Shown piece after piece: positions 1,662 to 55,003 of a stretch of DNA of 64,000 nt; the first letter of the stretch is position 1; every line of letters begins with the position of its first letter. The stretch spans positions 149,229 to 213,228 of the forward strand of contig JAIRXR010000011.1 of the NCBI GenBank assembly GCA_031268175.1, given 5' to 3'. The notes under the pieces were generated by a model. The model searched no databases. It had not been told where the DNA came from and worked only from the letters and a program-made list of their open reading frames with translations. The stretch is from Puniceicoccales bacterium. GTDB taxonomy: Bacteria > Verrucomicrobiota > Verrucomicrobiia > Opitutales > JAIRKQ01. The position numbers were made by a program, and so were the translations under genes.

Positions 1662-2582
1662 ATGGAAAACAATCACAGTAGAATTAGCGAGGGACCGGGC
1701 GGCGGCGTGAATAAAAGCCAAAGCAAAGTTGGTTCGTTTTTCAGCTACATCATAGGGTGTATAACGAAGCCGTTCAAGTTCATATACGAACGACTCTCGG
1801 GGAAAAAACTGAAAGAACGCGGGGCGAAACAGACGAAGCTGGAACAACATGAGCAGCTAGACAACAAAGCAACTATCCAAGGGAAATTGAACGCAGGAAG
1901 TGAATCCGCGAGTAGTGTAGAGCAAGAAGTTGCCAGCCAACAAACCCCAATTGAACAAAATTCTAGCTCAACCGACTCGGTATCGACAGATATCTCACGA
2001 GAAAATGAAACGCCTGGTGCTATAACCGACACGCATCTCCCACTCCAAGGTGTACAGGAACAAATTGCATCGGCAGACGTACATGCGCCACTCAAAAATG
2101 TACAAACGCTGATTTCAGGCGAACCGGTATCGACAGATATCTTACGAGGAACTGAACCGCTCGATACGATGATCGAAATGATACAAAATCAAATCGATAA
2201 TACAAAAAATATGCGTTATACGTGTGGCGATGGCGTCAACGCCGCATCCAATATGCGCAATTCACTGTTGGCAAAGGCAGAAAAAAACCTTCGTACATTG
2301 CATGATACGCTAAAGGAACTGAATAAAGGAACCAGCATCGAAATTTCCAAGGAAAAAATTTTGGAAAACACTGCCAGTATTAAAAAACTTGAAAAAACCG
2401 TGGGAAAAATGAAAATCGCGAAAGGTACGCAAGAAACTCTTTTAGGTTTGATCCATGACGCAGAAAAAATACTGCTAGAATTACTGAACAAGACAAAAGA
2501 AAAGCAGGCAGAGAAAAAGCGACAAGAAATGTTCGACCGCATGCGAAGCCTGAAGACCCAGACAGGTAATAGTTGGAAGTAA
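1662..2582 (+). CDS. hypothetical polar/coiled-coil protein with no recognisable domain
   Basis: 306-aa ORF that is rich in S/T/N/Q/E/K with no TM segments. Its local GC is visibly lower than in neighbouring genes, and it contains a 23-bp direct repeat (about 1978-2000 and 2118-2141). Confidence 0.5.
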   Translation: MENNHSRISEGPGGGVNKSQSKVGSFFSYIIGCITKPFKFIYERLSGKKLKERGAKQTKLEQHEQLDNKATIQGKLNAGSESASSVEQEVASQQTPIEQNSSSTDSVSTDISRENETPGAITDTHLPLQGVQEQIASADVHAPLKNVQTLISGEPVSTDILRGTEPLDTMIEMIQNQIDNTKNMRYTCGDGVNAASNMRNSLLAKAEKNLRTLHDTLKELNKGTSIEISKEKILENTASIKKLEKTVGKMKIAKGTQETLLGLIHDAEKILLELLNKTKEKQAEKKRQEMFDRMRSLKTQTGNSWK

Positions 2583-26987: not shown

Positions 26988-27322
26988 CAGACTCCGAAGG
27001 CAGCATCGCGTGCGCCACTGAATATTTTTGGGATATTCTAAAGGGTGTCTACGATCCGGAAATCGGCGTAAACATAGTAGACTTGGGGATGGTTTACGCC
27101 GTGGATTTGAAGAGTGCTGACGGCGAAAAATTCGACGTGACCATCGAAATGACGCTGACTTCACCATGGTGCCCACTTGCAGACACCATAGCGGACGAGG
27201 TAAAAGCCGCGATTGGGAACACGGGAAAATGTTCAAATGTGGCCGTAAGCTTTGTCTTCGACCCTCCCTGGCACATCGACATGATAACAACCGAAGGAAA
27301 AATGCAGTTGGGCATATTTTAA
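26984..27322 (+). CDS. DUF59/MIP18-family Fe-S cluster assembly protein (SufT-like)
   Basis: VYDPEIGVNIVDLGMVY and TLTSPWCP motifs typical of the DUF59 family. Length is 112 aa. Confidence 0.65.
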   Translation: MTDSEGSIACATEYFWDILKGVYDPEIGVNIVDLGMVYAVDLKSADGEKFDVTIEMTLTSPWCPLADTIADEVKAAIGNTGKCSNVAVSFVFDPPWHIDMITTEGKMQLGIF

Positions 27323-27405
27323 TCCTTGCATAGGCATAAGTTTTTTGCTATTTTTTACAGAAATTTATAGATTAGTTGGAGCAGTTTAATAATTTAAGGA
27401 CGTAA

Positions 27406-27891
27406 ATGAGCAGCAGTAAAACAAAAGTTGAAGATGCGTTGAGCAATCTGGCGTTGCGGTTGAAGCTGGAGTCGTTGAAACTCAACGATCGCGACGAAAC
27501 CTATTTGCTATTTGATCAAAAATTTCACGTGACGTGTGTGTTTGACGAAGAAAAGGACGAATTCATTCTCACATCCATCGTCGGAGATTTGGCAAAAAAC
27601 TCGATTGAGGCCTACAAAAAGCTACTCAATGACAATTTTTTCTGGGCTGGCACGGCGGGGTCGCGCCTGTTCCTCGATCCCGGGAGCGGCGACGAACCGG
27701 ACACAATCACAATAAAGGAAACCATTCCCGTCGCAATGTTCGACGAGGAGCGGCTCTACGAGCGCATGGAAGATTTTGTGAACGCGGTCGAATATTGGAG
27801 CACTGAATATCCAAAATTGAGCCAGGGCGGTGGTGTGGCGGTGGCAGCTCCGCAGGTGAGCATCTCTGACTTCGGCATGATGAGCGCATAG
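27406..27891 (+). CDS. type III secretion class I chaperone-like protein (CesT/SycE family)
   Basis: 161 aa, acidic. The core ETYLLFDQKFHVTCVFDEEKDEFILTSIVGDL followed by LNDNFFWAGTAGSRLFLDP parallels the CesT pattern ([26 protein letters not shown] ... LNANLWFAENGG). Recognised from memory of the family, not by a search. Confidence 0.55.
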   Translation: MSSSKTKVEDALSNLALRLKLESLKLNDRDETYLLFDQKFHVTCVFDEEKDEFILTSIVGDLAKNSIEAYKKLLNDNFFWAGTAGSRLFLDPGSGDEPDTITIKETIPVAMFDEERLYERMEDFVNAVEYWSTEYPKLSQGGGVAVAAPQVSISDFGMMSA

Positions 27892-27905: not shown

Positions 27906-28505
27906 ATGTGTGCGTTGGTTGATTCGTGGTTGGTCGGCTTGAAGAGGGCTCCTATCTTGCATTCCGCGCGGCTGTTGCTACGCCCGGTGTGCGTCGGCGA
28001 CGTTGTGCACATTCAGAGCAGCATAGACGACAAGCGCGTGTGCGACAATCTGTCCTATGTGCCACACCCATACACAGTGGAAATGGCGGAAACCTGGACG
28101 CGCAACGTAAACTTCGGGATGGCCAATGGGTCCTGCTGCTACTGGACGATATGCGACCAAAAAACCGAAGAATTCATTGGATCGATGGGTCTGAGCATAC
28201 ACAATGAACAGGACGGTTGCGAAATGCACTACTGGGTGAACGCCGACCAGTGGAACAAGGGCTATTGCACTGAGGCCGCCAAGCGCACAATCGTGCACGC
28301 CTTTGAAGATATCGGAATGCACAGGGTATTCATTACGCACCGCGAAAACGGCCTGGCGTCGAAGACGGTGATTAAAAAATGTGGATTTGTCCTAGAGGGT
28401 ATCCTGCGGGACTCGCTGAAGCGCTTCGGCAAATTTGAAAACGTTGCAACATATAGCATGCTGCACGACGAATATCTTGCCATGAAAAAAAATGGTCTAT
28501 ACTAG
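27906..28505 (+). CDS. GNAT family N-acetyltransferase (RimJ/RimL-like)
   Basis: Acetyltransf_3-like layout with LLLRP near the N-terminus and an acetyl-CoA binding region (RVFITHRENGLASKTVIKKCGF). Confidence 0.7.
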   Translation: MCALVDSWLVGLKRAPILHSARLLLRPVCVGDVVHIQSSIDDKRVCDNLSYVPHPYTVEMAETWTRNVNFGMANGSCCYWTICDQKTEEFIGSMGLSIHNEQDGCEMHYWVNADQWNKGYCTEAAKRTIVHAFEDIGMHRVFITHRENGLASKTVIKKCGFVLEGILRDSLKRFGKFENVATYSMLHDEYLAMKKNGLY

Positions 28506-29610: not shown

Positions 29611-30144
29611 ATGCACAGCATCAGCGTCATAGATTTCGAGGGAAACAAGGGGCTGGGAATTTTCGAATTTGGCGTGGTGACGCTGCTGGATTTTGAAATA
29701 ATTTCCACGCGTACGGAATTTTGCCAGGGCACTTTTCACGAGCATTTGGAATATTTTCTTTCACTGCGTAGAACCGGCCTGCTGGGCGCACACTCCGCCC
29801 AGACGGAGGATGGTTTGCTGCGCCATTACTGGGCATCTCCCGGGCTGGTTCCAACTTTTGCCGGCGGCCAAATGGTGCCGTCATGGGGGCCGTGGGCGGA
29901 CACGAAATTGATCCATAGAAAGCTATTTCCGCAGCTACAATCCTACGAATTGGAGGATTTGGTAGCCTCATTTGCGCTGTTCCCGGAATTGGAAAAATTG
30001 GCAAAAAAATACTGCTGCCCAGGCGGCACGAAATTTCACAGTGCCCTATTCGATGCCCTCGCAACTTCATTGCTGCTTCAAAACTTACAAAAGAATTTCG
30101 CCAATGTTTCCCTGGAAACGCTGCTGGCAATTTGCGAAAAATAA
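29611..30144 (+). CDS. DEDDh-family 3'-5' exonuclease (DnaQ-like)
   Basis: An Exo I-like VIDFEGN (DxE) motif and an Exo III-like HSALFDA (HxAxxD) motif. The 3' end of this gene is duplicated at 31375-31479. Confidence 0.55.
   Translation: MHSISVIDFEGNKGLGIFEFGVVTLLDFEIISTRTEFCQGTFHEHLEYFLSLRRTGLLGAHSAQTEDGLLRHYWASPGLVPTFAGGQMVPSWGPWADTKLIHRKLFPQLQSYELEDLVASFALFPELEKLAKKYCCPGGTKFHSALFDALATSLLLQNLQKNFANVSLETLLAICEK
30021..30126 (+). repeat. direct repeat copy A (3' end of the exonuclease gene)
   Basis: About 80% identical to 31375-31479 by manual alignment (cgaaatt(t/c)cacagtgc...aatgttt(c/t)c(c/t)ctggaaa(c/t)gctgct). Looser similarity with an indel continues to about 30165/31515. Confidence 0.7.
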
Positions 30145-30462
30145 TGGCAAAAACTAGTTTTCATTGCCAAGAACCGACCATCGCACTGCATGCGTCGCAT
30201 GGTCGCCAGTGTAACAACAAATTTATCTAACAATTGGAAACGCAAATAGCGCTGTGAGCACATGTCGTGGCGAACCGGTACGTGTTTCCAATTTTACATG
30301 CTAAACGGCGTTGCATATTGCAAAAATCTTAGCTTCGCAGTTGTTCCAAGCAAAAGAAATACCGTTGAGCTTTTATCGTATATAAAAAACAAAACTTATT
30401 TTTTATTGACAATTTAATTTTGACGATGTTTGTCGTTTTACACAGCCAAAGAAAGATTAGTT

Positions 30463-31179
30463 ATGTCAAATGATATTAGAACACTAAGTAACGATATGTC
30501 AAACGCCGTTAACAAAATGATTAACAGCATCCAAGGTAGATTGCACAAAATCGATAGTTTAGGAAAGGAATTTTCTGCTGAAAAAAAGGGAAATGGTCTT
30601 TCTCCGTCTGTATCTAAAACACGTGAAACACCCGCAACAGCGCGAACGTCCGTTTCCAATTCCAATGTACCTTTAAACAAGGGCATTCCACCGAGGCCAA
30701 ACAACAATCCCTCTACGGTTCAAGTCGTAAGACAAGAACCCACAAATTTACCAGCGGCGCGGCGATTGTTGATCGATGAGGAAATAGATAAAAGACTCAT
30801 TGAGTGTAAAAAAGCTTTCGATGAGAATAATGGAAACGGAAATACTGTAATCGAGACTGACACAAAGATCGCCAGTATTGCCTATAATGCGTACTTTGAT
30901 TTACTTACAGAATATACGAAAGATGGAGATGTAATTTATGTCGCAGATGTCGGTATTTTTTATGAAAAAGCTAGAATACTTGGACTTGTGTTCAGCTGCT
31001 ACGCAAACCACTCTATGAAAAACTGTATGAATGCCGTTCTTAGCACTGTAACAACTGGTAAAAAAATTTCACGCGAAATATCGAAATTCTTTAATGTCCC
31101 ACAGAAAGAAGCTGAAAAACAATTAGAAGAGATTTGGCTCGACGAACTGGATGCCTTACTAGACCGCTTAGAAGACTAA
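30463..31179 (+). CDS. hypothetical protein carried on the low-GC insertion, with an S/N/T-rich disordered N-terminal region
   Basis: ATG at 30463 (MSNDIRTLSNDMSNAV...). The track ORF begins at a TTG at 30430. The gene is strongly AT-rich relative to the flanks, has no signal peptide or TM, and shows no recognisable domain. Confidence 0.5.
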   Translation: MSNDIRTLSNDMSNAVNKMINSIQGRLHKIDSLGKEFSAEKKGNGLSPSVSKTRETPATARTSVSNSNVPLNKGIPPRPNNNPSTVQVVRQEPTNLPAARRLLIDEEIDKRLIECKKAFDENNGNGNTVIETDTKIASIAYNAYFDLLTEYTKDGDVIYVADVGIFYEKARILGLVFSCYANHSMKNCMNAVLSTVTTGKKISREISKFFNVPQKEAEKQLEEIWLDELDALLDRLED

Positions 31180-31192
31180 TGAGTTATCATGG

Positions 31193-31393
31193 CTAGTTTT
31201 TACCGTGCCAATGGTAAATGTTTTCCATGAGATTTATCACTAGCAAAAATATCACAATAACGGCAGCGGCGACGATGGCAAAGGACAAAGTTATAGCTGG
31301 TTCGACCATCGTCGTCAAAAATACTAGGCGATACCTAATTTTTTCATCGCAGATTTCGCCTATTTTCGCAATCCGCGGGGCGCGAAATTCCAC
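31193..31393 (-). CDS. small hydrophobic hypothetical protein on the insertion
   Basis: 66-aa ORF with one TM helix (LSFAIVAAAVIVIFLLVINL). Its start lies inside repeat copy B. It could be spurious. Confidence 0.25.
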   Translation of the reverse strand: MEFRAPRIAKIGEICDEKIRYRLVFLTTMVEPAITLSFAIVAAAVIVIFLLVINLMENIYHWHGKN

Positions 31394-39668: not shown

Positions 39669-39690
39669 GAAAATATTTTTGCAAGCAAGT

Positions 39691-39936
39691 TCACCGACAG
39701 CGTGTAAACTTTTGCTTGAATCGCTCAACTCTCCCAGCCGTATCAACCAAGTGTTTTCCGCCGGTGTATGCCGGGTGCGAATCGGACGTCACGTCGCAGT
39801 GGACGATGTTACACTCCACACCATCCACGATATCTTTCTTTTTCGAATGAAGCGAAGACACCGTAACAAACTTCCTACCGGTAGAAATGTCAATGAAACA
39901 AACCGGCTCTCTCTCGGGATGTATGCCTTTTTTCAT
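39691..39936 (-). CDS. rpmE: 50S ribosomal protein L31, non-zinc type B-like
   Basis: MKKGIHPE N-terminus at 81 aa, lacking the paired CxxC zinc motifs. An AGGAGG RBS lies 8 nt upstream. Confidence 0.85.
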   Translation of the reverse strand: MKKGIHPEREPVCFIDISTGRKFVTVSSLHSKKKDIVDGVECNIVHCDVTSDSHPAYTGGKHLVDTAGRVERFKQKFTRCR

Positions 39937-39948
39937 CTTTCGAGCCTC

Positions 39949-40074
39949 CTAACCCTGCCTCGCCTTGTATCTCGGGTTTGTTTTACAAATTACGTAAACG
40001 CGTCCCTTGCGACGCACAACCTGGCAATCCGGGTGCCGCAACTTTATCGACCTCAGCGACGTTGTTTTTTTCAT
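39949..40074 (-). CDS. rpmJ: 50S ribosomal protein L36
   Basis: 41-codon ORF absent from the ORF track: [41 protein letters not shown]. It ends with the L36 signature ...RRxGRVxVIC..NP+xKxRQG. Its stop lies 12 nt before the rpmE start. Confidence 0.7.
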
Positions 40075-40246
40075 GAAACCCTTACTACGTTCAGCAAAAC
40101 ACAACATTTTCCCGTGTCAAACAATATTTACACAAATCTGCCGTTGGCTAGCGTGGTATGCGCGGATGGATAGCGCGCCAGTCAACTCCTTTTTCGCAGA
40201 ATTATAATTGAAAAATTCTTCGCCGTAGAAATAATCCCTACGAACA

Positions 40247-41236
40247 ATGATCGATGATGCCGCAGCAATGAACGCCGCCATGCGCCAGTCGGCGGAATGG
40301 GTGCACGCCCTCAGGGACGAAATTGGCAGGGTGATCGTCGGGCAAAAATACATGGTCGATCGCATGATAATCGGGTTGCTCACCGGCGGACATATCTTGC
40401 TGGAAGGGGCTCCCGGACTCGGAAAAACACTGGCGGTCAAAGTGATGGCGCAGGCAATTTGCGCGACGTTCCAGCGCATCCAGTTCACACCTGACATGCT
40501 TCCAGCGGACATTATCGGAACGCAAATTTACAATCCCAAAACTGGAGATTTTTACAGAAAAAATGGTCCGATTTTCGCAAATGTGATCCTCGCCGACGAA
40601 ATCAACCGCGCTCCAGCCAAGGTGCAGAGCGCGCTACTGGAATGCATGCAGGAATTGCAGGTGACGATTGGCGGCGAAAGCAATAAACTGCCGCAGCCGT
40701 TCGTAGTATTCGCCACCGAAAATCCGGTTGAACACGAAGGGACATACCCATTGCCTGAGTCGCAGATTGACAGATTCTTGCTGAAGCTGAAAATCGAATA
40801 TCCAACTAGAATCGAAGAACTGAAAATTTTAGACGAGGCGGCGAAGGTGGATAGAAAAATCTCCGCCAGCGCCGTCGTTTCCATCGACCAAATTTTAGAC
40901 TCCCGCCTGTTGGTCGACGAAATTTTCATCGGCGAAAGCGTGCGGGAATACGCCGTCGACATAATTTCTGCGACCAGGAAGCCGAGTGACTACGGAATCG
41001 ACATGGACCACTTCGTCCGGTTCGGCGCCTCACCGCGCGCTACGATCGCGCTAGTCTTGGCGGCGAAATCCTGGGCATTTCTGCATGGGCGCAGCTACGT
41101 CACACCGCAGGACGTGAAAGCGATTGGCATGGACGTGCTGCGCCACCGCATAGCAATCACCTATCTGGCGGATGCCGAAGGTGTCACCGGCGAAGTCATT
41201 GCCGCCAGAATTTTGAACACCGTGCGCGTGCCGTAG
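40247..41236 (+). CDS. MoxR-family AAA+ ATPase
   Basis: Walker A GAPGLGKT, Walker B ILADEINRA and a MoxR-type C-terminal lid. Length is 329 aa. Confidence 0.85.
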   Translation: MIDDAAAMNAAMRQSAEWVHALRDEIGRVIVGQKYMVDRMIIGLLTGGHILLEGAPGLGKTLAVKVMAQAICATFQRIQFTPDMLPADIIGTQIYNPKTGDFYRKNGPIFANVILADEINRAPAKVQSALLECMQELQVTIGGESNKLPQPFVVFATENPVEHEGTYPLPESQIDRFLLKLKIEYPTRIEELKILDEAAKVDRKISASAVVSIDQILDSRLLVDEIFIGESVREYAVDIISATRKPSDYGIDMDHFVRFGASPRATIALVLAAKSWAFLHGRSYVTPQDVKAIGMDVLRHRIAITYLADAEGVTGEVIAARILNTVRVP

Positions 41237-42862: not shown

Positions 42863-43033
42863 CTATCCCTTTATTTCCCGGTGCAGCGTGTGGCGCCTGA
42901 GAAATTTATTAAACTTCATCTTCTCAACGCGCTCCGTCTGAACCTTCTTATTGCGCGTTGACATGTAACGGGAAACCGGCTTTCCCTCTTTTTTGGCCTC
43001 CGTGCACTCTAAAATTATGTACTCTCTTGGCAT
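42863..43033 (-). CDS. rpmG: 50S ribosomal protein L33
   Basis: [18 protein letters not shown]...[10 protein letters not shown] matches L33. The track ORF extends to 43051. Confidence 0.8.
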
Positions 43034-43285
43034 GGCATCAGTTATTAACAACTAGGTAAATTTTACCAATTAAAAACTCAACAAAAATTTTGAAATAAAT
43101 TAGAAATATACCTGCCTGTCGTCGAAATTTGCGCATCCGCCGGGTTTTTAGATCCGGCCTAATTTTTTGAACGGCGGCAATGGCGAAATATTTGCACAAA
43201 TCACAAATTTGAAATTAAATTTTACAAAAAAAAGATTGCAATATTTTCATAAATTGGCAAGCTTGTCAACTGAACGGAGATTGGC

Positions 43286-44509
43286 ATGAACATTAAAGCT
43301 ATTCATATGGCATCCCTTTCGGGAAAAAATCCATCTCGAAAAATTGATGGCAGAGCGATTATAAGTAGCGCTGGCACACCGGGCCAGGTAAAAGCACCAA
43401 AGGCGGCTGAGGCCAGGAGCATCGTTCCTGCGAAGCCGCAGCAAATTTTCACCGCGCCTGAACAGTTGCTGCAAGAAACGAAACCATTGGCGTGCAGATT
43501 AGCGACTGCGCCGATCACACCTAAATCGACCGCTGCAAAGTCGGACAAATCAAATATTTTACCGCTCAATCCAATTGCAAAGCTCCCGGGAAAGGCACCA
43601 CTTTCGAACCCACCGCAAACGCCAGCCACGCCGAACGACAAACGAAAACCATCGGACGCCGAAATCACCAATAGACTACTTTCGATTAAAAATCCGAAAT
43701 TGTCAATTAGCGCACCGGAACATGGCAAGGATTTTTACTTCGAACAGCAGAGAAATGGCAGCATTTGCGGTCTGTGCGCCGCACGCAACTACGTCGGCGC
43801 ACCGTGTGTCTCGCTGAAAACTTTAAACAATATAAAGAGAAATCACTTCGCCGGGAAAGCCGTACTGGCCACGGCGTGCGACCACATCAACAACGCGCTT
43901 GCGATACTCATGCCGCAGATGAAAAAAATAGTGACCGAAGGCAAACTTTCAAAAGCTCCAAAAAATTCAATGGAATTGCTGGCGGAATTGTCCCGCCTGG
44001 CAACCGCAACTGTCCAGGATGGGGAAAAAGTTATCGACGCCATCAACGCCGTTCTTCCGGCGCTCAACGCGGCTGGACTCGGGCAATCAAAGGCCTACGC
44101 GTCCATGCAAAAGCAAATTTACAGGATACGCAGCGACTGCCTCGACGTATCAGTTGGCGGAAGCGACCCTGCCTTCGTATTGGAAGCACTGCGACAAGTT
44201 GATCCAAATGTCGTCTCCGAACCCTACTACAAGCTGCCCAACGGCGGCAATATTTTCGAGACCCTCGATGCCAAGCACGCGAACCGCGGCATTGTTAGCA
44301 TCCGCGGCCATTTCGTCACCGTGCGAAAGGATGGACGCGGCCAATGGTATATCCTAGATTCTCTGCGGTCAAGCCCAACGCCGATAGCGAAAGGCTCCAA
44401 CGCCTTGCGGGGGTACTCCGGTGTAATTTACTCAACCGAAGACTCAATCGATCCAGTTCTCGTAGACAAACTGATAGCTGCCATGAACGAAGCATCCTCA
44501 GCATTCTAG
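43286..44509 (+). CDS. hypothetical protein with a disordered P/S/K/A-rich N-terminal third and a C-terminal Cys...His...Asp domain resembling a papain-like protease
   Basis: 407 aa with no signal peptide. Residues 1 to about 140 are low-complexity. The region QQRNGSICGLCAARNY resembles a papain/OTU-like Cys box, and IRGHFVTVRKDGRGQWYILDSL supplies His/Asp candidates. A GGAG RBS lies 7 nt before the ATG, which is preceded by a 250-bp AT-rich region. Confidence 0.45.
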   Translation: MNIKAIHMASLSGKNPSRKIDGRAIISSAGTPGQVKAPKAAEARSIVPAKPQQIFTAPEQLLQETKPLACRLATAPITPKSTAAKSDKSNILPLNPIAKLPGKAPLSNPPQTPATPNDKRKPSDAEITNRLLSIKNPKLSISAPEHGKDFYFEQQRNGSICGLCAARNYVGAPCVSLKTLNNIKRNHFAGKAVLATACDHINNALAILMPQMKKIVTEGKLSKAPKNSMELLAELSRLATATVQDGEKVIDAINAVLPALNAAGLGQSKAYASMQKQIYRIRSDCLDVSVGGSDPAFVLEALRQVDPNVVSEPYYKLPNGGNIFETLDAKHANRGIVSIRGHFVTVRKDGRGQWYILDSLRSSPTPIAKGSNALRGYSGVIYSTEDSIDPVLVDKLIAAMNEASSAF

Positions 44510-44560: not shown

Positions 44561-46030
44561 ATGGAATATGAAGCTGTCATAGGTCTCGAGGTTCACGTCC
44601 AGATAAAAACGCGATCCAAGCTGCTTTCCAGCTGCCCCTACGAATTCGGGGCGGAACCAAACACGCTGACCGACGCCGTTACCATGGGATTACCTGGGAC
44701 GCTACCAGTAATTAACGGAGAAGCCGTGGAAAAGACCGTAAAGGCCGGCTTAATTTTTGGCTGCGACATCGCAGCTGTCGCAAAGTGGGATAGAAAAAAT
44801 TACTTTTACCCGGATTGTCCAAAAAATTATCAAATTTCGCAAAACAGTAATCCGATCTGCCGCGGTGGATGCGTGGAAATCGAGCTGCCTGGACCGTCAC
44901 GCAGCGCCATGGGCTGGCACAAAAAAATCGCACTTGATCGCATCCACCTAGAGGAGGACGTTGGCAAGCTGACGCACTTCGCAGATGATTCCGGCGTGGA
45001 TTTCAATCGCGCCGGAGTGCCTCTGATGGAAATCGTGTCAAAGCCTGACATGCGCTCCGCCGACGAAGCCTTCGCCTACCTGAATTCCCTGCGCATGCAC
45101 ATGATTTGCGCCGGCATTTCCAGCTGCGACATGGAAAAGGGGGAGATGCGATGCGATGCAAACGTCAGCATCCGCCCGGTCGGTGAGAAGGAACTCGGAA
45201 CGAAAGTGGAAATTAAAAATCTAAACTCCATTTCTGGAGTAAAAAATAGCCTGGAATTTGAAATCCGAAGGCAAATCGAGGCTGTGGAAGCCGGGGGAGA
45301 AATTTCCCAGGAGACGCGCCGCTGGGACGCGAATTTATGCACGACGACTGCCCTGCGATCGAAGGAAACAGCCTTCGACTACAGGTATTTTGCGGATCCG
45401 GACCTGATGCCGGTAAAAATTTCCTCCGAGGTTAGGGAAAGAATTGGGAATGAAATACCTGAATTGCCGTTCCGGAAGCAGGAACGCTTCGCAGCGCAGT
45501 ACGATTTGCCCTATACCATAACATCCGTTATTTGCCCGAGGGCGGACTTGAGCAATTTCTTCGAAGCGTCGGTCGCCATTCACAACAATCCGCGCGCCAT
45601 TGCGAACATGGTTGCCAATGACATGCTCAGGGAAATATCAAGTGCAAACTCCCGGCACACGCAGGGCGAGGATCAATCGCAAAAAAATTTTAAAATTTCT
45701 CCAAAAAATCTGGCGGAGCTGGTGAAGCTGGCGGATGATGGCGTAATTTCCAAGCAAATTGCACAGGTCGCATTCGTCGAAATGTTCCAAACGGGGAAAA
45801 CTGCCCTGGAAATAGTTGAAGAGAAGGGGCTCAGGCAAAATGCTGATTCGGACGTCCTCCTGGAAATTTGCAAGGGGGCCATCGCCGAAAACGCAAGGGC
45901 CGCCGACGAATTTCGCAGAGGCAAGGACGCAGCGATTAACGCGATCAAAGGGATCGTAATGCGAGCAACAAAGGGTAAAGCCAGCACGGCCATCGTAGAC
46001 AAAACGCTACGCGAATTACTAAATTCCTAG
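44561..46030 (+). CDS. gatB: Asp-tRNA(Asn)/Glu-tRNA(Gln) amidotransferase subunit B
   Basis: YEAVIGLEVHVQ N-terminus, a GatB/GatE catalytic domain and a C-terminal GatB/YqeY domain. Length is 489 aa. Confidence 0.9.
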   Translation: MEYEAVIGLEVHVQIKTRSKLLSSCPYEFGAEPNTLTDAVTMGLPGTLPVINGEAVEKTVKAGLIFGCDIAAVAKWDRKNYFYPDCPKNYQISQNSNPICRGGCVEIELPGPSRSAMGWHKKIALDRIHLEEDVGKLTHFADDSGVDFNRAGVPLMEIVSKPDMRSADEAFAYLNSLRMHMICAGISSCDMEKGEMRCDANVSIRPVGEKELGTKVEIKNLNSISGVKNSLEFEIRRQIEAVEAGGEISQETRRWDANLCTTTALRSKETAFDYRYFADPDLMPVKISSEVRERIGNEIPELPFRKQERFAAQYDLPYTITSVICPRADLSNFFEASVAIHNNPRAIANMVANDMLREISSANSRHTQGEDQSQKNFKISPKNLAELVKLADDGVISKQIAQVAFVEMFQTGKTALEIVEEKGLRQNADSDVLLEICKGAIAENARAADEFRRGKDAAINAIKGIVMRATKGKASTAIVDKTLRELLNS

Positions 46031-46102: not shown

Positions 46103-47272
46103 GTGAAAAAGTTGAATGTTGACCACAAGTCACACGCGGGAAAGCGAGTGGATTTAGTCATCGTAGCGGGCGAACACTCCGGAGATCAGCATGCCGCAGT
46201 CATGCTGAAGGAACTAAAAAAAATTAGGCCGGACATTGGCGTTGTTGCATTTGGTGGGCGTGCCCTCAGGGAGGCGGGAGCCGATCTCATCGTAGACATG
46301 ACGAAATTTGCCGTGGTTGGCGTGTGCGAAGTTATTGCTAATGCGTTCTTTTTTTCAAATCTTCTAGAGCAGGTATTTCTGTGGATAGAATCGCACAGCC
46401 CGCGCGCCGTATGTCTCGTAGATTTCCCCGGATTCAACCTGAAGCTAGCCAAAATGCTGTGGGCAAAAAAACTTTCGCAGAAGGGCGGTGGCACGATAAA
46501 AGTCTTCTACTACATCTCGCCTCAAATTTGGGCATGGAAAGCGAATAGACGCCACCAAATGGCGAAATTCGTCGACGCGATGGCGACGATTTTGCCGTTC
46601 GAAAAGAAATGCTTCGCCGACACGCCACTGACTGTCCATTTCGTCGGACATCCGTTCGCTTCGCCGAACCACAACTTGAATATTTTCTACAATGCGGATG
46701 GCCCCATACTGCTGCTTCCCGGCAGCAGGAAATCCGCCGTTGCAAAAATTTTCCCCATGCTGTTGAAGAGCTTTCGCGAAATTTTGAAAGAGGACTTGGA
46801 GCGCATGGCGATCGTCGTTTACCCGGACGAACAAATTTTGGCAATTCTTAGGAAAATTCTAAACAAAAAATTTCCAAAATTGCTGGATAAAGTAACATTC
46901 ATAGCGGACGGTGAAAGCGTCGAAGCGAGTGCCGCCATAATGAGCTCCGGAACGATGTCCCTTCGCTGCTGCCTGGCTGGAATTCCGGGAGCGATCGTAT
47001 ACAAAACGCATCCGCTAACGTTCATAGCCGGGAAAATTCTCGTAAAGATAAAATTCCTGGGCATGGCGAACATTTTGCTAAATAGGTGCGTTTGGCATGA
47101 ATTTTTGCAGGCGCAATTGCGCCCGAAATCCGTGGCGAAATACATTTTACAGTGCATTGGCAGCGAAAAAATCAAGCGCTCCTTCGAGGCCGCTTCGGCG
47201 GAGCTGAGAAAAATACTATCCGCCGGAATTGACGTCTCGGCGGCCCAGTGGCTACTGTTGTCACTGCAATAA
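46103..47272 (+). CDS. lpxB: lipid-A-disaccharide synthase
   Basis: VAGEHSGDQHA and YISPQIWAWK motifs of the LpxB GT-B family. Length is 389 aa. Confidence 0.85.
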   Translation: MKKLNVDHKSHAGKRVDLVIVAGEHSGDQHAAVMLKELKKIRPDIGVVAFGGRALREAGADLIVDMTKFAVVGVCEVIANAFFFSNLLEQVFLWIESHSPRAVCLVDFPGFNLKLAKMLWAKKLSQKGGGTIKVFYYISPQIWAWKANRRHQMAKFVDAMATILPFEKKCFADTPLTVHFVGHPFASPNHNLNIFYNADGPILLLPGSRKSAVAKIFPMLLKSFREILKEDLERMAIVVYPDEQILAILRKILNKKFPKLLDKVTFIADGESVEASAAIMSSGTMSLRCCLAGIPGAIVYKTHPLTFIAGKILVKIKFLGMANILLNRCVWHEFLQAQLRPKSVAKYILQCIGSEKIKRSFEAASAELRKILSAGIDVSAAQWLLLSLQ

Positions 47273-48105
47273 TTTGCGCCATGCATGAAAAAAACATACT
47301 GCCGCAGCTGTACCGGAGAACGTTTCGCCCGAATGGCGTCGTGCTCGGAGACGCAAGGGAGTACGTTCCAGGAGACGACACGAGATTCATAAATTGGTAC
47401 GCCACGGCCAAAGCAGGCGTTCCTTTCGTCGACGGCATTCGCAGCGACAGTGGCGCAGACATAGTATTCGCCGTGGACGTCAGCGCATCGATGAAATTTG
47501 GTACGCGAAAGCGATCGAAAATGGCACTGGCCATCGACATCGTCGAAGCGCTATCCCAGCTCGCAAAGGCAAACAGCGACAGAGTTGGCCTAGTTTTGTT
47601 TTCGGACAGCGTGGAAAAGTATTTGCCACCCAGGCGCAGCGGACAGGCATTTAGAAATGCCGTAGAGGAAATCGCCAATTCCGATCGGCGGCTGCGAACG
47701 AATCTACCGGTCACACTGAAATTTTTGGACAAGATAGTAAAAAAGCGATCGGCGATAATTTTGATTTGCGACACCTTCTGCCTGGCCTCCCATAGAAAAT
47801 TGGGGCTCGGGTATTTGCATCTTCTGCAAACGAAGCACGCAGTTACACTGCTGGCCATCGGCGATGGCAATGACATGCCGTGCCCGCAAATCGGAAAAAT
47901 CACCATCGAAGACGCCGAGAGCGGAGACGCGTTCGAAATCGACACGGACGATGTCGATCTAATCGCAAAGGTGCGGGAAAAATACGCCACCTACGAGAAA
48001 ATGATTTTGGAAGACGCAAGGGCCATCGGCGTGGGAGTTTTTCAAGCCAACACCGGGGATTCAATTGCAAAATTTCTTCTTGCATTTTTTAAACGCCGCG
48101 CCTAA
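47248..48105 (+). CDS. DUF58 domain protein (usually a MoxR partner)
   Basis: The DAREYVPGDDTRFINW signature (DxRxYxxGDDxRxIDW) and a vWA-like fold. It overlaps the 3' end of lpxB by 25 nt in another frame. Confidence 0.7.
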   Translation: MATVVTAIICAMHEKNILPQLYRRTFRPNGVVLGDAREYVPGDDTRFINWYATAKAGVPFVDGIRSDSGADIVFAVDVSASMKFGTRKRSKMALAIDIVEALSQLAKANSDRVGLVLFSDSVEKYLPPRRSGQAFRNAVEEIANSDRRLRTNLPVTLKFLDKIVKKRSAIILICDTFCLASHRKLGLGYLHLLQTKHAVTLLAIGDGNDMPCPQIGKITIEDAESGDAFEIDTDDVDLIAKVREKYATYEKMILEDARAIGVGVFQANTGDSIAKFLLAFFKRRA

Positions 48106-48152: not shown

Positions 48153-49433
48153 ATGAAACTGGTTTTCGAGAAAAAAGGCGGAAAATTGGCATGGTTTGCG
48201 TGGATAGCCGCGGTTGTTTTTTACCTTTACGAATATTTGGTTCGCGTCGCACCGAGCGTAATGGAGAGTGAATTGGCCAAGCAATTTTCCGCGTCCGCTG
48301 CGACGATGGGAATGGGCGTCGCAACCTACTACTTCATCTACGCACCGCTGCAGCTTTTCGCCGGAATAATGTTCGATAAGTTTGGCGGCAGGACGATTCT
48401 CGTTCCAGCTTCCATCATCGTCGTGGTCGGATGCCTAGTTCCAATAATACCGTCGAATTCGCTTATCTGTGTGGCCGCCGGAAGGACTTTGGCAGGCATT
48501 GGGTCCAGCTTCGCGTTCATCGGCGTCATGTACCTGGCCTCCGTCTGGTTCTACGACCACAGGTTGGCGTTCCTGTCCGGACTCGCCACGTCATTCGGCA
48601 TCTTTGGCGCGCTCCTTGGGCAGAGGCCGCTTTCCTTTTTCGTCGATCACATCGGATGGAAAATGTCCTTCGTTCTCATGGCCATCGTCGGAGTGATCGT
48701 AACGATGCTGCTCTCGTCGCACATTCCTGACACTCCGCATTGGGAGCTGGAAAAAAGGGCCGCCATCTCCGACGCTCCATCCATTAAAAATTTTCTCTCC
48801 GGATTAATTTCCGTGTGCAAAAACAGGCAAACGTGGATAATTGGCGCAGTTGGCGCGTGTCTGTATGCCCCGCTCGTGATATTCGGTGATCTCTGGGGCG
48901 TGCGATACGTGGAAACATCCTTCGCGGCGTCCAAGGCCAAGGCGGCTGAAGCAGTCGCCATGCTTTACATCGGATGGCTCGTTGGTGGGCCGCTGGTTGG
49001 CCTGCTGTCGGACATTGTAAAATGCCGAAGAAAACTTCTCATAGGCGGGTGCTTCCTGAGCACAATTTTATTCGCTGCCGCGCTGCTGCTACCGATAAAG
49101 ACCATATTCACATTCGGAGTGTTTCTATTCTTGGCCGGAGTGTGCTCCAGTCCGGAGGTTATTTGCTTTGTGGCAAGCCTGGAATCGAATGCTGCCGAGG
49201 CAAAGGGTAGCGCCGTCGCCGTTGTAAACATGATCGTCATGCTTGTCGGCGGACTGTTTCAGCCGATAGTTGGGTGGCTTATGGAGCTGAATTTTTCGCA
49301 CACCGCGCATGGCGTATCCCACGAAGCATTTCGCAATGCCCTACTCACGATGCCAATATTGACGTTCGTCGGCATGATGCTCGCCCTATCCATAAAAAGG
49401 GAAGCCGGCGAAGGTAAGTTCATAGGCGTGTGA
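48153..49433 (+). CDS. MFS transporter
   Basis: Twelve predicted TM helices, an MFS-type GRxxAG loop (AAGRTLAGIG), 426 aa. Confidence 0.8.
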   Translation: MKLVFEKKGGKLAWFAWIAAVVFYLYEYLVRVAPSVMESELAKQFSASAATMGMGVATYYFIYAPLQLFAGIMFDKFGGRTILVPASIIVVVGCLVPIIPSNSLICVAAGRTLAGIGSSFAFIGVMYLASVWFYDHRLAFLSGLATSFGIFGALLGQRPLSFFVDHIGWKMSFVLMAIVGVIVTMLLSSHIPDTPHWELEKRAAISDAPSIKNFLSGLISVCKNRQTWIIGAVGACLYAPLVIFGDLWGVRYVETSFAASKAKAAEAVAMLYIGWLVGGPLVGLLSDIVKCRRKLLIGGCFLSTILFAAALLLPIKTIFTFGVFLFLAGVCSSPEVICFVASLESNAAEAKGSAVAVVNMIVMLVGGLFQPIVGWLMELNFSHTAHGVSHEAFRNALLTMPILTFVGMMLALSIKREAGEGKFIGV

Positions 49434-51741: not shown

Positions 51742-52260
51742 ATGTCAGCTTTTTTCTTCGCCACTCTGCACTACTCCACGCTAATTTTCTGCCAATTTTT
51801 CAACAACGCGACCCAATACCCGAGCGCATTGATCGTTCCGGTTGGGCTACTCATCCACGACCACGGAGATTATTTGGGACCAATCGGCGGGACAATTCTG
51901 TGCCTAGCGATTGGGTTGCTGCTCGATGCAACATTCTGGTTTTTGCCATTTGGATTCAGCGTAATTTTTTGCCTCTTCTTTCACTGTGCGCGAAAGCTAC
52001 TGGCAAACGCCGCAGCCGACAAAGCGATCCGCCATCGCATTGCCTGCGAGCAGCTCGCAAATATTTTGTACGTATTTTTTCTATTTGCCCTCGGAAGTGG
52101 ACCTTTTCCCGTGAGCAAATTTTTGGCAACGGCGGCACTGTCACAGGCAGCTGTGTTTTTTAGTTCGGGCCCAATGGCGCGGGCGCACGTAAAAATTGCG
52201 TCATTCTGCGACGGCTACGCAAAGTATGGCCGTCGGACAATCAAAAATTCGTTCCGTTGA
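51742..52260 (+). CDS. mreD: rod shape-determining protein MreD
   Basis: A 172-aa polytopic membrane protein starting 3 nt after the mreC stop, which is the canonical mreC-mreD order. The assignment rests on position and size. Confidence 0.5.
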   Translation: MSAFFFATLHYSTLIFCQFFNNATQYPSALIVPVGLLIHDHGDYLGPIGGTILCLAIGLLLDATFWFLPFGFSVIFCLFFHCARKLLANAAADKAIRHRIACEQLANILYVFFLFALGSGPFPVSKFLATAALSQAAVFFSSGPMARAHVKIASFCDGYAKYGRRTIKNSFR

Positions 52261-53053
52261 AGCTGATTCTTCCGAAGCTCTTCCTGGAATTTGCAAAGAG
52301 GAAATCCTTCGCTTTCGCCCGGTCCTTCGACGCCACGGCGTCGAATTTTTGAGCATCTCTCCCCTGGAAAGCGCGTAGTGTGACATCCAGAAATATCAAT
52401 TCTCCTGGTACTGTTAGTGATTTTCCAGATTTTTGATATGCCAACGCGCCGCCGAAGAAAATCATCCGTTCGTTCGAGGCGGTCATGAAAATTTTTCCAT
52501 TACGCTTCTTCACGGCGGCGCGAATTTTGAAATCGGAGAGTACAGTGTCGAATTTGCGAACCTGTTTGCAGGATTGGTCAGCGCCGTCGAAAAACTTTTT
52601 AAATGACGATCCATTGGCCAGCGCACCCTGCAGCGACAGCGTGGTGGTCGCATCGAGCAAAATCCTCGAAACTTCAACTTTTCCAGCTCCCAATTGGAGA
52701 ACGTCGTAGCACAGAGCCCTCGTCACGCTGGGCTCGCCGTTGTCGGCGACCGTCGCGAAGCAGAATATGGCGATGCCTTTGCCGTCGTCTCTTGCGCAAA
52801 TTTCAAAAATTGGCTGATTCTTGTCCAGCATGACAACCGACTCGAAATCGGTCCTCATGCCCTTTAACAGCGCGTGCAATGCGCAGTCGACGCCCCTAGC
52901 CTCTTCCATCGATTTCGCATTTTCAGCGGAAACATTGACGAGCTTTCCCCCTAGAAACACCACAACTACCACGATGCTCAGCGCTAGAATCACCTCGAAT
53001 AGCGAAAAAGCTCTACCTTTTCCAACTCCCAAACTACAAAATCCCTTTGACAT
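52241..53053 (-). CDS. prepilin-type N-terminal cleavage/methylation domain protein (pseudopilin-like)
   Basis: The N-terminal GKGRAFSLFEVILALSIVVVVVFL matches the class III signal (F-S-L-x-E with Glu+5) plus a hydrophobic helix. The remainder is a beta-rich periplasmic domain. Confidence 0.55.
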   Translation of the reverse strand: MSKGFCSLGVGKGRAFSLFEVILALSIVVVVVFLGGKLVNVSAENAKSMEEARGVDCALHALLKGMRTDFESVVMLDKNQPIFEICARDDGKGIAIFCFATVADNGEPSVTRALCYDVLQLGAGKVEVSRILLDATTTLSLQGALANGSSFKKFFDGADQSCKQVRKFDTVLSDFKIRAAVKKRNGKIFMTASNERMIFFGGALAYQKSGKSLTVPGELIFLDVTLRAFQGRDAQKFDAVASKDRAKAKDFLFANSRKSFGRISFNGTNF

Positions 53054-53188
53054 ATCTTAACCCTCTACCACTCGAGCTATAATAGCAAAACTTAAATTAG
53101 TCAAACAAATATTTTCATAAAAATTTACAACAAAATGTTTTTTATTGTAACATTGCGAAAATTATGCTGTTTCAATTGAAGCGGGCGC

Positions 53189-55003
53189 ATGGTAGACATT
53201 GAAAATTTAACCCACAGAATTGGAAGCAGAATATTGTTTGAAAATGCTACGCTCCATCTTCCGCAATGCGGCAAGATTGGGCTCGTCGGCCCAAACGGAT
53301 GCGGGAAAACGACACTATTTCGCATTATCCTCGGGCAGGAGGAGATCGATGGCGGAGAAATCTACATAAAAAATACCGCCAAACTCGTGTGCGTGAAACA
53401 GGAAATCGAAGACGTCGAAATTTCCCCGCTCGACCTGGTCATGGAAGCCGACGTGGAACTTATCGGGCTGCGGAAAATTATGAATAGCGAATCGCATGCA
53501 ACGGCGGAAGAGCTGGCCAATGCATGGGACAGATATGGCGCTATTGGAGGATATTCTGCGGAAGCGCGCGCCGCCGGCATACTGGCGGGGCTCGGATTTA
53601 AACAAAGTGACATGCGGAAGAAAATTGGAGAGCTTTCCGGCGGCTGGCAGGTGAGGGCCTCCCTTGCCGCAACGCTATTTGCACCATCGGACTGCCTGCT
53701 GCTCGACGAACCCACCAATCACCTGGACTTCGAAACGGCAATGTGGCTGGAAAATTACTTGGAAAAAACGGACAAGATGATCCTGATGATTTCCCATGAA
53801 AGGCAATTTCTCAACAAAATTTGCAACCACATAGTTGCCATACACGGCAGGCAGCTGCAGCTGTTCAAGGGAAACTACGATACCTACGTCGACACGCGGG
53901 ACAAGCGGGAGATTGCACTCACGAGAAACATCGAAAATTTGCAAAAGAAGCGGGACCACATGCAGAGTTTCATCGATCGCTTCGGTGCGAAGGCGACAAA
54001 AGCCAGGCAGGCACAGAGCATGGCAAAAATGATAAAAAAAATGGAAATTCCCGAAATGCCGGAATCCGCCTATTCGGTAAAGCTGTCGTTTCCACAGCCA
54101 AAGCCGCAAGTCGACCGCAAGCTGATAACTCTTGAGGATGTTTCCGCCGGCTACGGCCGCAAAGTCGTGTTGAGCGCTGTTGATCTCTGCGTAAGCTACG
54201 GCGACAGAATCGCGCTGCTTGGGGCCAACGGCAATGGCAAGTCCACGCTAGCAAAGGTACTGGCTGGAAGACTGCTCCCAATATCCGGGGATGTGATTCG
54301 CGGACGCAGCGTCAAAATTTCATACTTTTCCCAGCAGCAAGCGGACGAATTGGACGTGGCAAAAACTCCCGTGGCAACCCTGCGCGGCACCGTCCGAGAA
54401 TTTTCCGAGACGCAGGCTCGGGCCCATTTGGCGAGATTCGGCATAACGCAAGCGCGCGCCGAGACCCCAATAGGAAATTTATCAGGCGGGGAAAAATCGC
54501 GCGTGCTACTGTCGATAAATTCGCTGTCTAGCCCCCATGCCATGATCCTCGATGAGCCGACGAATCACCTGGACATCGAGGCCCGCGGAGCTCTAGTGGA
54601 CGCCATCGGCCAATACGAAGGGGCGGTAATTTTGATCACACACGATTTCTACGCGCTGGCCAAAATTTGCAGCAAATTTTTCATAGTTGCCGAAGAAAAA
54701 TGTACGCCATTCAATGGCTCCATTGATTACTACCGAAAATCTTTGCTTACTGAAGACGGTGAGCGAATCGCCGAGTCGGCAAATGGCAGAAAAAATATCG
54801 AAAGCGGCGCACAAAGTGACACCCAAAGGCGGCGCAGGGAACTTGCGGCGCTGGAAAGGAAAATCTCCGCAGCGGAATCGAAAAAGCGAAAATTGGAAAG
54901 TCTTCTCTGCCGGTCCAATGAAGCGGAAGCGCACGACTCGTACGCCGCCTGTTGCAAAGAACTGTCCGAGCTGGAGGACAAATGGCTGAAGCTAAGCGCA
55001 TGA
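53189..55003 (+). CDS. ABC-F family ATPase (Uup/EttA/YheS-like)
   Basis: Two tandem ABC domains, each with Walker A (GPNGCGKTT, GANGNGKST) and LSGG signature motifs, a linker and a C-terminal coiled coil. No TM domain. Confidence 0.85.
   Translation: MVDIENLTHRIGSRILFENATLHLPQCGKIGLVGPNGCGKTTLFRIILGQEEIDGGEIYIKNTAKLVCVKQEIEDVEISPLDLVMEADVELIGLRKIMNSESHATAEELANAWDRYGAIGGYSAEARAAGILAGLGFKQSDMRKKIGELSGGWQVRASLAATLFAPSDCLLLDEPTNHLDFETAMWLENYLEKTDKMILMISHERQFLNKICNHIVAIHGRQLQLFKGNYDTYVDTRDKREIALTRNIENLQKKRDHMQSFIDRFGAKATKARQAQSMAKMIKKMEIPEMPESAYSVKLSFPQPKPQVDRKLITLEDVSAGYGRKVVLSAVDLCVSYGDRIALLGANGNGKSTLAKVLAGRLLPISGDVIRGRSVKISYFSQQQADELDVAKTPVATLRGTVREFSETQARAHLARFGITQARAETPIGNLSGGEKSRVLLSINSLSSPHAMILDEPTNHLDIEARGALVDAIGQYEGAVILITHDFYALAKICSKFFIVAEEKCTPFNGSIDYYRKSLLTEDGERIAESANGRKNIESGAQSDTQRRRRELAALERKISAAESKKRKLESLLCRSNEAEAHDSYAACCKELSELEDKWLKLSA

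Follow-up and report, generated by a model that had tools for sequence, protein, structure and literature searches.

Identification of a Josephin-like protein encoded between rpmG and gatB

What kind of protein is encoded by the gene that separates rpmG from gatB in a member of the Puniceicoccales (Verrucomicrobiota)? The gene lies on contig JAIRXR010000011.1 of assembly GCA_031268175.1, of which a stretch of 64,000 nucleotides (positions 149,229 to 213,228), here called the window, was analysed; all coordinates given below refer to it. An original prediction, made without database searches, had described at this place an open reading frame (ORF) of 407 amino acids without a signal peptide and had suggested that its product is a secreted effector such as a deubiquitinase or a YopT-like protease. 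The ORF exists as described: it is complete, occupies 43286..44509 on the + strand and is a 100% match to the 'hypothetical protein LBI61_03960' of a Puniceicoccales metagenome-assembled genome (MAG) in the NCBI database. Taken as a whole, the data are in our opinion probably best explained if the ORF encodes a bacterial Josephin-like cysteine isopeptidase with a papain fold, which would be exported and would cut the ubiquitin of a host.

The relationship to Josephin-like proteins emerged step by step as more sequences were included in the searches. With the single sequence the top match in Pfam was Josephin (PF02099; 15.5-16.4 bits, E=0.008-0.016), with the His/Asp box alone being aligned, and a search of the PDB yielded the bacterial enzymes PcJOS (9FN4, E=0.019) and PaJOS (9G7G, E=0.042). 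Sub-threshold matches to Pfam Josephin were obtained for 5 of the 15 members of the family assembled here. A profile of three orthologues had PcJOS, BpJOS and PaJOS as its top three matches in the PDB. When the profile was extended to 15 sequences the E-values fell to 1.8e-8 for BpJOS, 1.8e-5 for PaJOS and 2.5e-5 for PcJOS; ataxin-3 and Josephin-2 came next, at E-values of about 0.1-0.4. Matches of the same profile to influenza HA2 and to designed coiled coils were discarded because they reflect the long helices of an insert and not homology. Two blocks are aligned in the correct order, the Cys box FY.E.Q...CGL.A...Y.G and a second block which extends from GG.DP..v...L to GHF.a.RK...g.W...DS.

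Structure prediction led to the same family. A first AlphaFold model, built with three orthologues, had a predicted local distance difference test score (pLDDT) of 59.6, left the Cys region unresolved and was discarded. The second model was built with the 15 sequences; it covers amino acids 121-407 with a mean pLDDT of 90.1 and a predicted template modelling score of 0.86. Here Cys161 is the first residue of a helix and His342 that of a beta-strand, and Asp358 comes after the adjacent strand, as is standard for the papain fold. The catalytic helix is reached after one helix and two strands, elements which are also found in BpJOS and are required there for activity (Hermanns et al. 2024, bioRxiv 10.1101/2024.07.24.604956). 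A Foldseek search with the model gave BpJOS at E=3.1e-7 and the families in the same order as the sequence searches, and so bore out the papain-like fold that had been expected. Three features of the bacterial Josephin-like family, namely the fold, significant profile similarity and an aligned catalytic triad, were found, and the Josephin fold was found as well. In the databases the protein is still annotated as 'hypothetical', while one of its orthologues is already listed as 'Josephin domain-containing protein'.

The deubiquitinase-type biology that had been proposed originally agrees with this assignment. The more specific suggestion, an effector protease of the OTU family or of the YopT/AvrPphB-like type (C58), does not: neither the signature nor the fold of these enzymes was found. 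No OTU structure and no Pfam OTU or C58 model appeared in any result table, and Josephin-like proteins ranked top in every search. We therefore consider an OTU or C58 enzyme to be extremely improbable.

Catalytic residues and domain architecture

The catalytic domain comprises amino acids 121-407 (43646..44509, + strand). In the model its catalytic helix is followed by a helical insert, a core of beta-sheet and, at the C-terminus, a further helix. Both motifs on which attention had first been focused are present, QQRNGSICGLCAARNY at amino acids 154-169 and GHFVTV...WYILDSL at amino acids 341-360, and they contain Cys, His and Asp in the order typical of clan CA. In the profile alignments C161, H342 and D358 correspond to residues 69, 166 and 182 of BpJOS and to residues 66, 187 and 203 of PaJOS, so the Cys of GSICGLCA and the His of GHFV had been picked correctly. 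Replacement of the triad residues by alanine abolishes the activity of both BpJOS and PaJOS (Hermanns et al. 2024).

The putative nucleophile Cys161 (codon TGC, 43766..43768, + strand) is located at the N-terminus of the helix formed by amino acids 161-170. It aligns with residue 69 of BpJOS (replaced by Ala in the crystallised C69A variant) and with PaJOS C66, and it is present in every family member that covers this region in the 15-sequence alignment. The candidate catalytic histidine, His342 (codon CAT, 44309..44311, + strand; BpJOS H166, PaJOS H187), stands at the start of a beta-strand and is invariant in all 15 sequences. Asp358 in the motif WYILDS (codon GAT, 44357..44359, + strand; BpJOS D182, PaJOS D203) would be the third member of the triad; all full-length family members have Asp at this position except one, which has Glu. 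Gln155 in the motif FYFEQQRN (codon 43748..43750, + strand) corresponds to BpJOS Q62 and PaJOS Q61 in the alignments and is kept in the family consensus FYxExQxN of the 15-sequence alignment. From these alignments the catalytic triad is predicted to be Cys161/His342/Asp358, and the residue of the oxyanion hole is probably Gln155.

It might be objected that a Josephin-like protein need not be an active enzyme. The family member KrJOS is inactive in vitro, and in P0014, a relative with two tandem family domains that is described below, the catalytic His of the first domain is replaced by Cys (GSCFKCVRK). That the protein lacks catalysis or does no more than bind ubiquitin, as a pseudoenzyme or decoy would, is nevertheless very unlikely here because Gln155, Cys161, His342 and Asp358 are all retained and are conserved across orthologues that share only 41-54% identity.

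The domain is preceded by an N-terminal region (amino acids 1-120; 43286..43645, + strand) which is rich in Ala, Pro, Lys and Ser (15%, 14%, 11% and 9%, respectively, of amino acids 1-125). Its composition had been described correctly. Its length had been overestimated: the conserved domain begins at about amino acid 121-127 and not at about 140. The region is poorly conserved among the orthologues, with few invariant columns before amino acid 115, whereas the C-terminal 285 or so residues are strongly conserved. A signal peptide is absent, the highest mean Kyte-Doolittle value of any 15 consecutive residues within the first 60 amino acids being 0.33. The first 30 amino acids include a single acidic residue and 13 residues of the group S/T/N/P/I, a composition that is compatible with a non-cleaved secretion signal. 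The N-terminal 120 or so amino acids are regarded as a candidate secretion signal or linker.

The second peculiarity of the protein is the helical insert (approximately amino acids 177-303; 43814..44194, + strand). Its 125 or so residues are predicted to form five long helices and some short ones in an arrangement resembling a four-helix bundle. The insert is located between the catalytic helix and the first strand of the core, which is where members of the family have their S1 ubiquitin-binding region (alpha2-alpha4).

Distribution of the gene and conservation of its neighbourhood

Relatives of the protein are rare. A word-indexed search of 5.8 billion proteins returned the exact protein and only two other relatives, both of them encoded between rpmG and gatB. 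A genome scan with the alignment of three sequences added a fourth syntenic locus, with the order fabD-rpmG-X-gatB, in the Puniceicoccales MAG Roe453_bin18. Syntenic orthologues (rpmG-X-gatB) are thus present in three other assemblies, at 41-54% identity, which shows that the ORF is more than a chance reading frame. A fifth, more divergent copy is located beside the genes dCMP deaminase-fabD-rpmG. An orthologue profile searched with HMMER against 1.84 billion cluster representatives gave only 29 matches at E<=1e-3, and all relatives with a source name came from Puniceicoccales MAGs. Several of the weak HMMER matches are not members of the family and proved to be unrelated repeat or USP proteins with nothing but the His-box hairpin in common with it. 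Among these P0019 is a beta-hairpin repeat protein, and P0010 (3205 amino acids) is a tandem array of roughly ten identical USP-protease units which were matched only through a His-box hairpin (GHYFSYIKAGNGQWYKMDD). P0010 is probably an assembly artefact of a eukaryotic gene.

The MAG from which the window was taken contains a paralogue, LBI61_00910 (P0013), with 352 amino acids, 26% identity and the same Cys box and His/Asp box. The Josephin-like subfamily is therefore present in more than one copy in this genome. The tandem protein P0014 (770 amino acids; L010, 4001..6313, JGI 3300042606), whose second domain retains the catalytic His, has its gene some 3 kb away from a pair of rpmG and fabD genes. 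The surroundings of rpmG would therefore appear to be where the family was located ancestrally.

At least one of the Puniceicoccales MAGs carrying a family member originated from the gut of a lower termite. Its accession falls within the range JAIRJQ-JAITXW, the MAG set of Mies et al., and other family members were found in one JGI sample series that mirrors the assemblies of these authors. In this MAG set a large verrucomicrobial clade has been proposed to comprise flagellate endosymbionts, in addition to the endonuclear Ca. Nucleococcus (Mies et al.).

The gene arrangement itself is conserved. On one side the ORF is flanked by the divergent rpmG (42863..43033, - strand), which codes for ribosomal protein L33 of 56 amino acids. 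On the other side the essential gene gatB (44561..46030, + strand) follows on the same strand after 51 bp. gatB is located downstream of the ORF in the same orientation at all four loci that have gatB at this place (the window, L001, L003 and L004), and at the other loci the spacing is 40-43 bp. A scan of the gap between the ORF and gatB did not reveal any terminator-like site. Given the conserved synteny and the 51-bp gap, gatB is probably driven by the same promoter. Such an organisation points to an old gene which has become fixed and whose expression is constitutive, together with that of gatB; it is unlike that of a virulence gene carried by an island and specially regulated.

Export and proposed mode of action

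Four lines of evidence suggest that the protein acts as an effector: the family acts on ubiquitin, the N-terminus is disordered, evolves fast and lacks a Sec signal, the window contains a CesT-family gene, and the lineage is one that has been linked to eukaryotic hosts. The 14 characterised bacterial family members with detectable activity all act on ubiquitin, and bacteria do not possess ubiquitin (family literature). The CesT-family gene (27406..27891, + strand), which codes for a chaperone of the type associated with type III secretion systems (Pfam PF05932, E=3.9e-13, above the gathering score), is the chaperone-like gene that had been reported 15 kb away; it was found 15.4 kb upstream of the ORF. 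A comparison of its product with the PDB sequences gave no match. The gene adjoins a GNAT acetyltransferase gene (27906..28505), not the ORF, and has an AT-rich stretch in front of it (27201-27575). The CesT-family gene and the GNAT gene could represent a chaperone-effector couple.

On this basis the following mode of action may be envisaged. The disordered N-terminal 120 or so residues would serve as secretion signal and linker, and the protein would be exported into a eukaryotic host cell; a flagellate of the termite gut is the likely host, and type III secretion the likely route. Inside the host cell the enlarged helical module behind the catalytic helix might grip the Ile44 patch of ubiquitin and feed the C-terminal tail of ubiquitin into the active site. 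Cys161 could then remove ubiquitin from host-attached marks, thereby shielding the bacterium or its compartment from ubiquitin-dependent clearance. Members of the bacterial Josephin-like family contact the Ile44 patch of the S1 ubiquitin through the part of the protein that follows the catalytic helix, and the orientation imposed in this way determines whether the cut is made after Gly76 or after Arg74 (Hermanns et al. 2024).

The cut might be made in either of two ways. A conventional deubiquitinase (DUB) would cleave after Gly76. Cleavage after Arg74, as by BpJOS, PcJOS and SnJOS, is irreversible and would make the enzyme a ubiquitin C-terminal clippase (UCC); clippases produce truncated ubiquitin and leave a Gly-Gly stub on the substrate (bacterial Josephin-like family literature). 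From the comparison with characterised enzymes we lean slightly towards the clippase mode because clippases make up 11 of the 14 active bacterial members that have been characterised, the nearest structure is that of the clippase BpJOS and the N-terminal extension is BpJOS-like. The alternative is the same Josephin-like enzyme acting as a reversible deubiquitinase, like PaJOS, HeJOS, MxJOS and the eukaryotic Josephins. We rate it as the less probable of the two, though a serious contender. Phe343, which directly follows His342, occupies the aromatic 'gatekeeper' position, and in the deubiquitinase PaJOS this residue is likewise Phe (Phe188). It does not discriminate, however, because the clippase PcJOS also has Phe (Phe285) and the clippase BpJOS has Trp (Trp167); an aromatic residue is found in both modes, and the sequence does not reveal the register of cleavage. 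The best match in both sequence and structure is the clippase BpJOS, and most characterised bacterial members are clippases, which argues against the deubiquitinase. AlphaFold-multimer predictions with ubiquitin gave the right mode for all seven of the confidently modelled candidates studied by Hermanns et al. (2024).

A further idea concerns the specificity of the enzyme. The Puniceicoccales proteins could represent a distinct, lineage-restricted subfamily whose S1 module, resembling a four-helix bundle, may provide a new specificity, either as a new linkage-specific clippase or for a ubiquitin-like modifier of protists. This is put forward as a tentative and rather doubtful proposal. The authors who described the family regard the diverse sequences of the helical part behind the catalytic helix as a source from which new specificities can arise.

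A number of observations weigh against an exported enzyme that acts on the ubiquitin of a termite-gut host. With 16.4 bits the ORF does not reach the Pfam Josephin gathering score of 26 bits, and for this reason it is filed with the bacterial Josephin-like family and not with the canonical Josephin domain. The His-box motif also occurs in USP proteases (P0010) and is not diagnostic when taken alone. Since the helical insert exceeds that of every solved member by 60-84 residues, binding of ubiquitin at this place is an extrapolation. BpJOS (a clippase) and PaJOS (a DUB) are close relatives with opposite cleavage modes (Hermanns et al. 2024), and similarity consequently does not predict the mode. 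The G+C content of the ORF (51.5%) equals the genome average. The ORF is probably co-transcribed with gatB, i.e. it would form an operon with a housekeeping gene, and its neighbourhood is a conserved one of housekeeping genes, which is atypical of classic effector islands, though it fits an old gene that has become fixed in its lineage. No secretion-apparatus genes were detected among the approximately 50 ORFs scanned in the window, all of which are housekeeping genes or unassigned. That the MAG to which the window belongs comes from a termite gut is presumed solely from its locus-tag and accession series.

It might be asked whether the protein is a cytoplasmic cysteine protease with a substrate other than ubiquitin and no role in a host. 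Such an enzyme could act on a Gly-Gly-containing bacterial peptide or protein, like the C39 peptidases. The C39 double-glycine peptidases (ComA, PCAT1) obtained a lower structural score against the model of the ORF product, and Pfam C39 match, ABC-transporter fusion and bacteriocin context are all lacking. The PADLOC defence models gave no match, which argues against a bacterial ubiquitin-like protein or a defence context. We regard a cytoplasmic protease of this kind as unlikely, and an exported Josephin-like isopeptidase acting on host ubiquitin as the probable explanation. No effector biology was found in the two papers on termite symbionts that were searched.

Upstream region and other genes of the window

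The ORF starts with ATG, preceded by GGAG at 43276-43279 with a spacer of 6 nt. The intergenic region between the divergent rpmG and the ORF (43034..43285, 252 bp) is non-coding and has a G+C content of 33.3%, compared to a mean of 51.0% for the window, which places it among the lowest 0.4% of all 234-bp windows. The AT-richness noted in the original prediction is thus real. The conclusion that it marks a virulence-type regulated promoter was not upheld since five other stretches of the 64-kb window are comparably AT-rich; with six such sites in all, AT-richness appears to be a general property of some intergenic regions and nothing special to the ORF. An Rfam search of 43034-43285 gave no match.

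A block within this region (43229..43276) is conserved across the four orthologous upstream regions and is presumably a promoter. On the + strand it contains the -35-like hexamer TTGCAA (TTGACA in two orthologues). On the - strand TTGACA-N18-AATATT at 43269-43240 agrees with the sigma-70 consensus at 10 of 12 positions and points towards rpmG; this was the only match in a sigma-70 scan, which did not find a + strand promoter upstream of the ORF. The block is probably the promoter region of the divergent rpmG/ORF pair, its direction being ambiguous. A terminator-like hairpin at 43139-43158 was rejected as it was no more stable than shuffled sequences (z=-1.64) and was not conserved in L003 or L004.

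Some other genes of the window deserve mention. The genes for a MoxR-type AAA ATPase and for a DUF58/VWA protein (40247..41236 and 47248..48105), which as a rule are partners, flank the block fabD-rpmG-X-gatB-lpxB and are about 6 kb apart. A gene for a transporter of the major facilitator superfamily (48153..49433, 4 kb downstream) was examined as a candidate for a sugar-phosphate antiporter, a type of transporter that is characteristic of intracellular symbionts; it gave matches to the D-galactonate/hexuronate-type and phosphoglycerate-transporter subfamilies, all of them sub-threshold. Mies et al. discuss transporters for sugar phosphates and hexuronates as features that mark endosymbionts of flagellates. 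Five ORFs of 164-306 amino acids (1662..2582, 29611..30144, 30430..31179, 39679..40173 and 52241..53053) do not belong to any Pfam family even at E<=0.05, and several of them adjoin other AT-rich stretches (2161-2600, 30191-31265 and 52911-53325). These five ORFs may be lineage-specific and are candidates for further host-interaction genes.

Comparison with known systems

Bacterial Josephin-like enzymes, with which bacteria that live inside eukaryotic cells remove or destroy the ubiquitin of their hosts, have been recognised only recently. Among them are the first 'ubiquitin clippases' to be found in nature; such enzymes are in demand for the mapping of ubiquitin sites and of branched chains. 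The ORF and its approximately 15-20 relatives extend the Josephin-like family to the Verrucomicrobiota, a phylum that is absent from the set of characterised members, and they contribute the largest helical region when compared with the solved members. The gene also offers a testable starting point for asking how Verrucomicrobiota that may live inside termite-gut flagellates could escape ubiquitin-dependent clearance by the host. If the tentative proposal of a distinct subfamily with a new specificity is true, the presence of these proteins, with their paralogues and the tandem form, would show for the first time at the molecular level that verrucomicrobial endosymbionts manipulate the ubiquitin system of their flagellate hosts in termite guts.

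Among eukaryotic proteins the ORF product may be compared with the Josephins ataxin-3, ATXN3L and JOSD1/2 (PF02099, MEROPS C86). These are conventional DUBs, and their helical arm is far smaller than that of the ORF product. The third residue of the triad, Asp in the ORF product, is Asn in ataxin-3.

The closest known system is the bacterial Josephin-like DUB/UCC family, which includes BpJOS (9F5T), SnJOS1/2, BcJOS, PcJOS (9FN4), PaJOS (9G7G) and HeJOS (Hermanns et al., bioRxiv 10.1101/2024.07.24.604956; Boll et al., PMC10643670). Similarity of the ORF to this family, of which BpJOS is the ubiquitin C-terminal clippase of Burkholderia pyrrocinia, is detectable with profiles only. The ORF product differs from the characterised members in its disordered N-terminus of about 120 amino acids and in the module that resembles a four-helix bundle. 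Its helical region is much larger, with 181 amino acids separating the catalytic Cys and His, compared to 97 in BpJOS and 121 in PaJOS.

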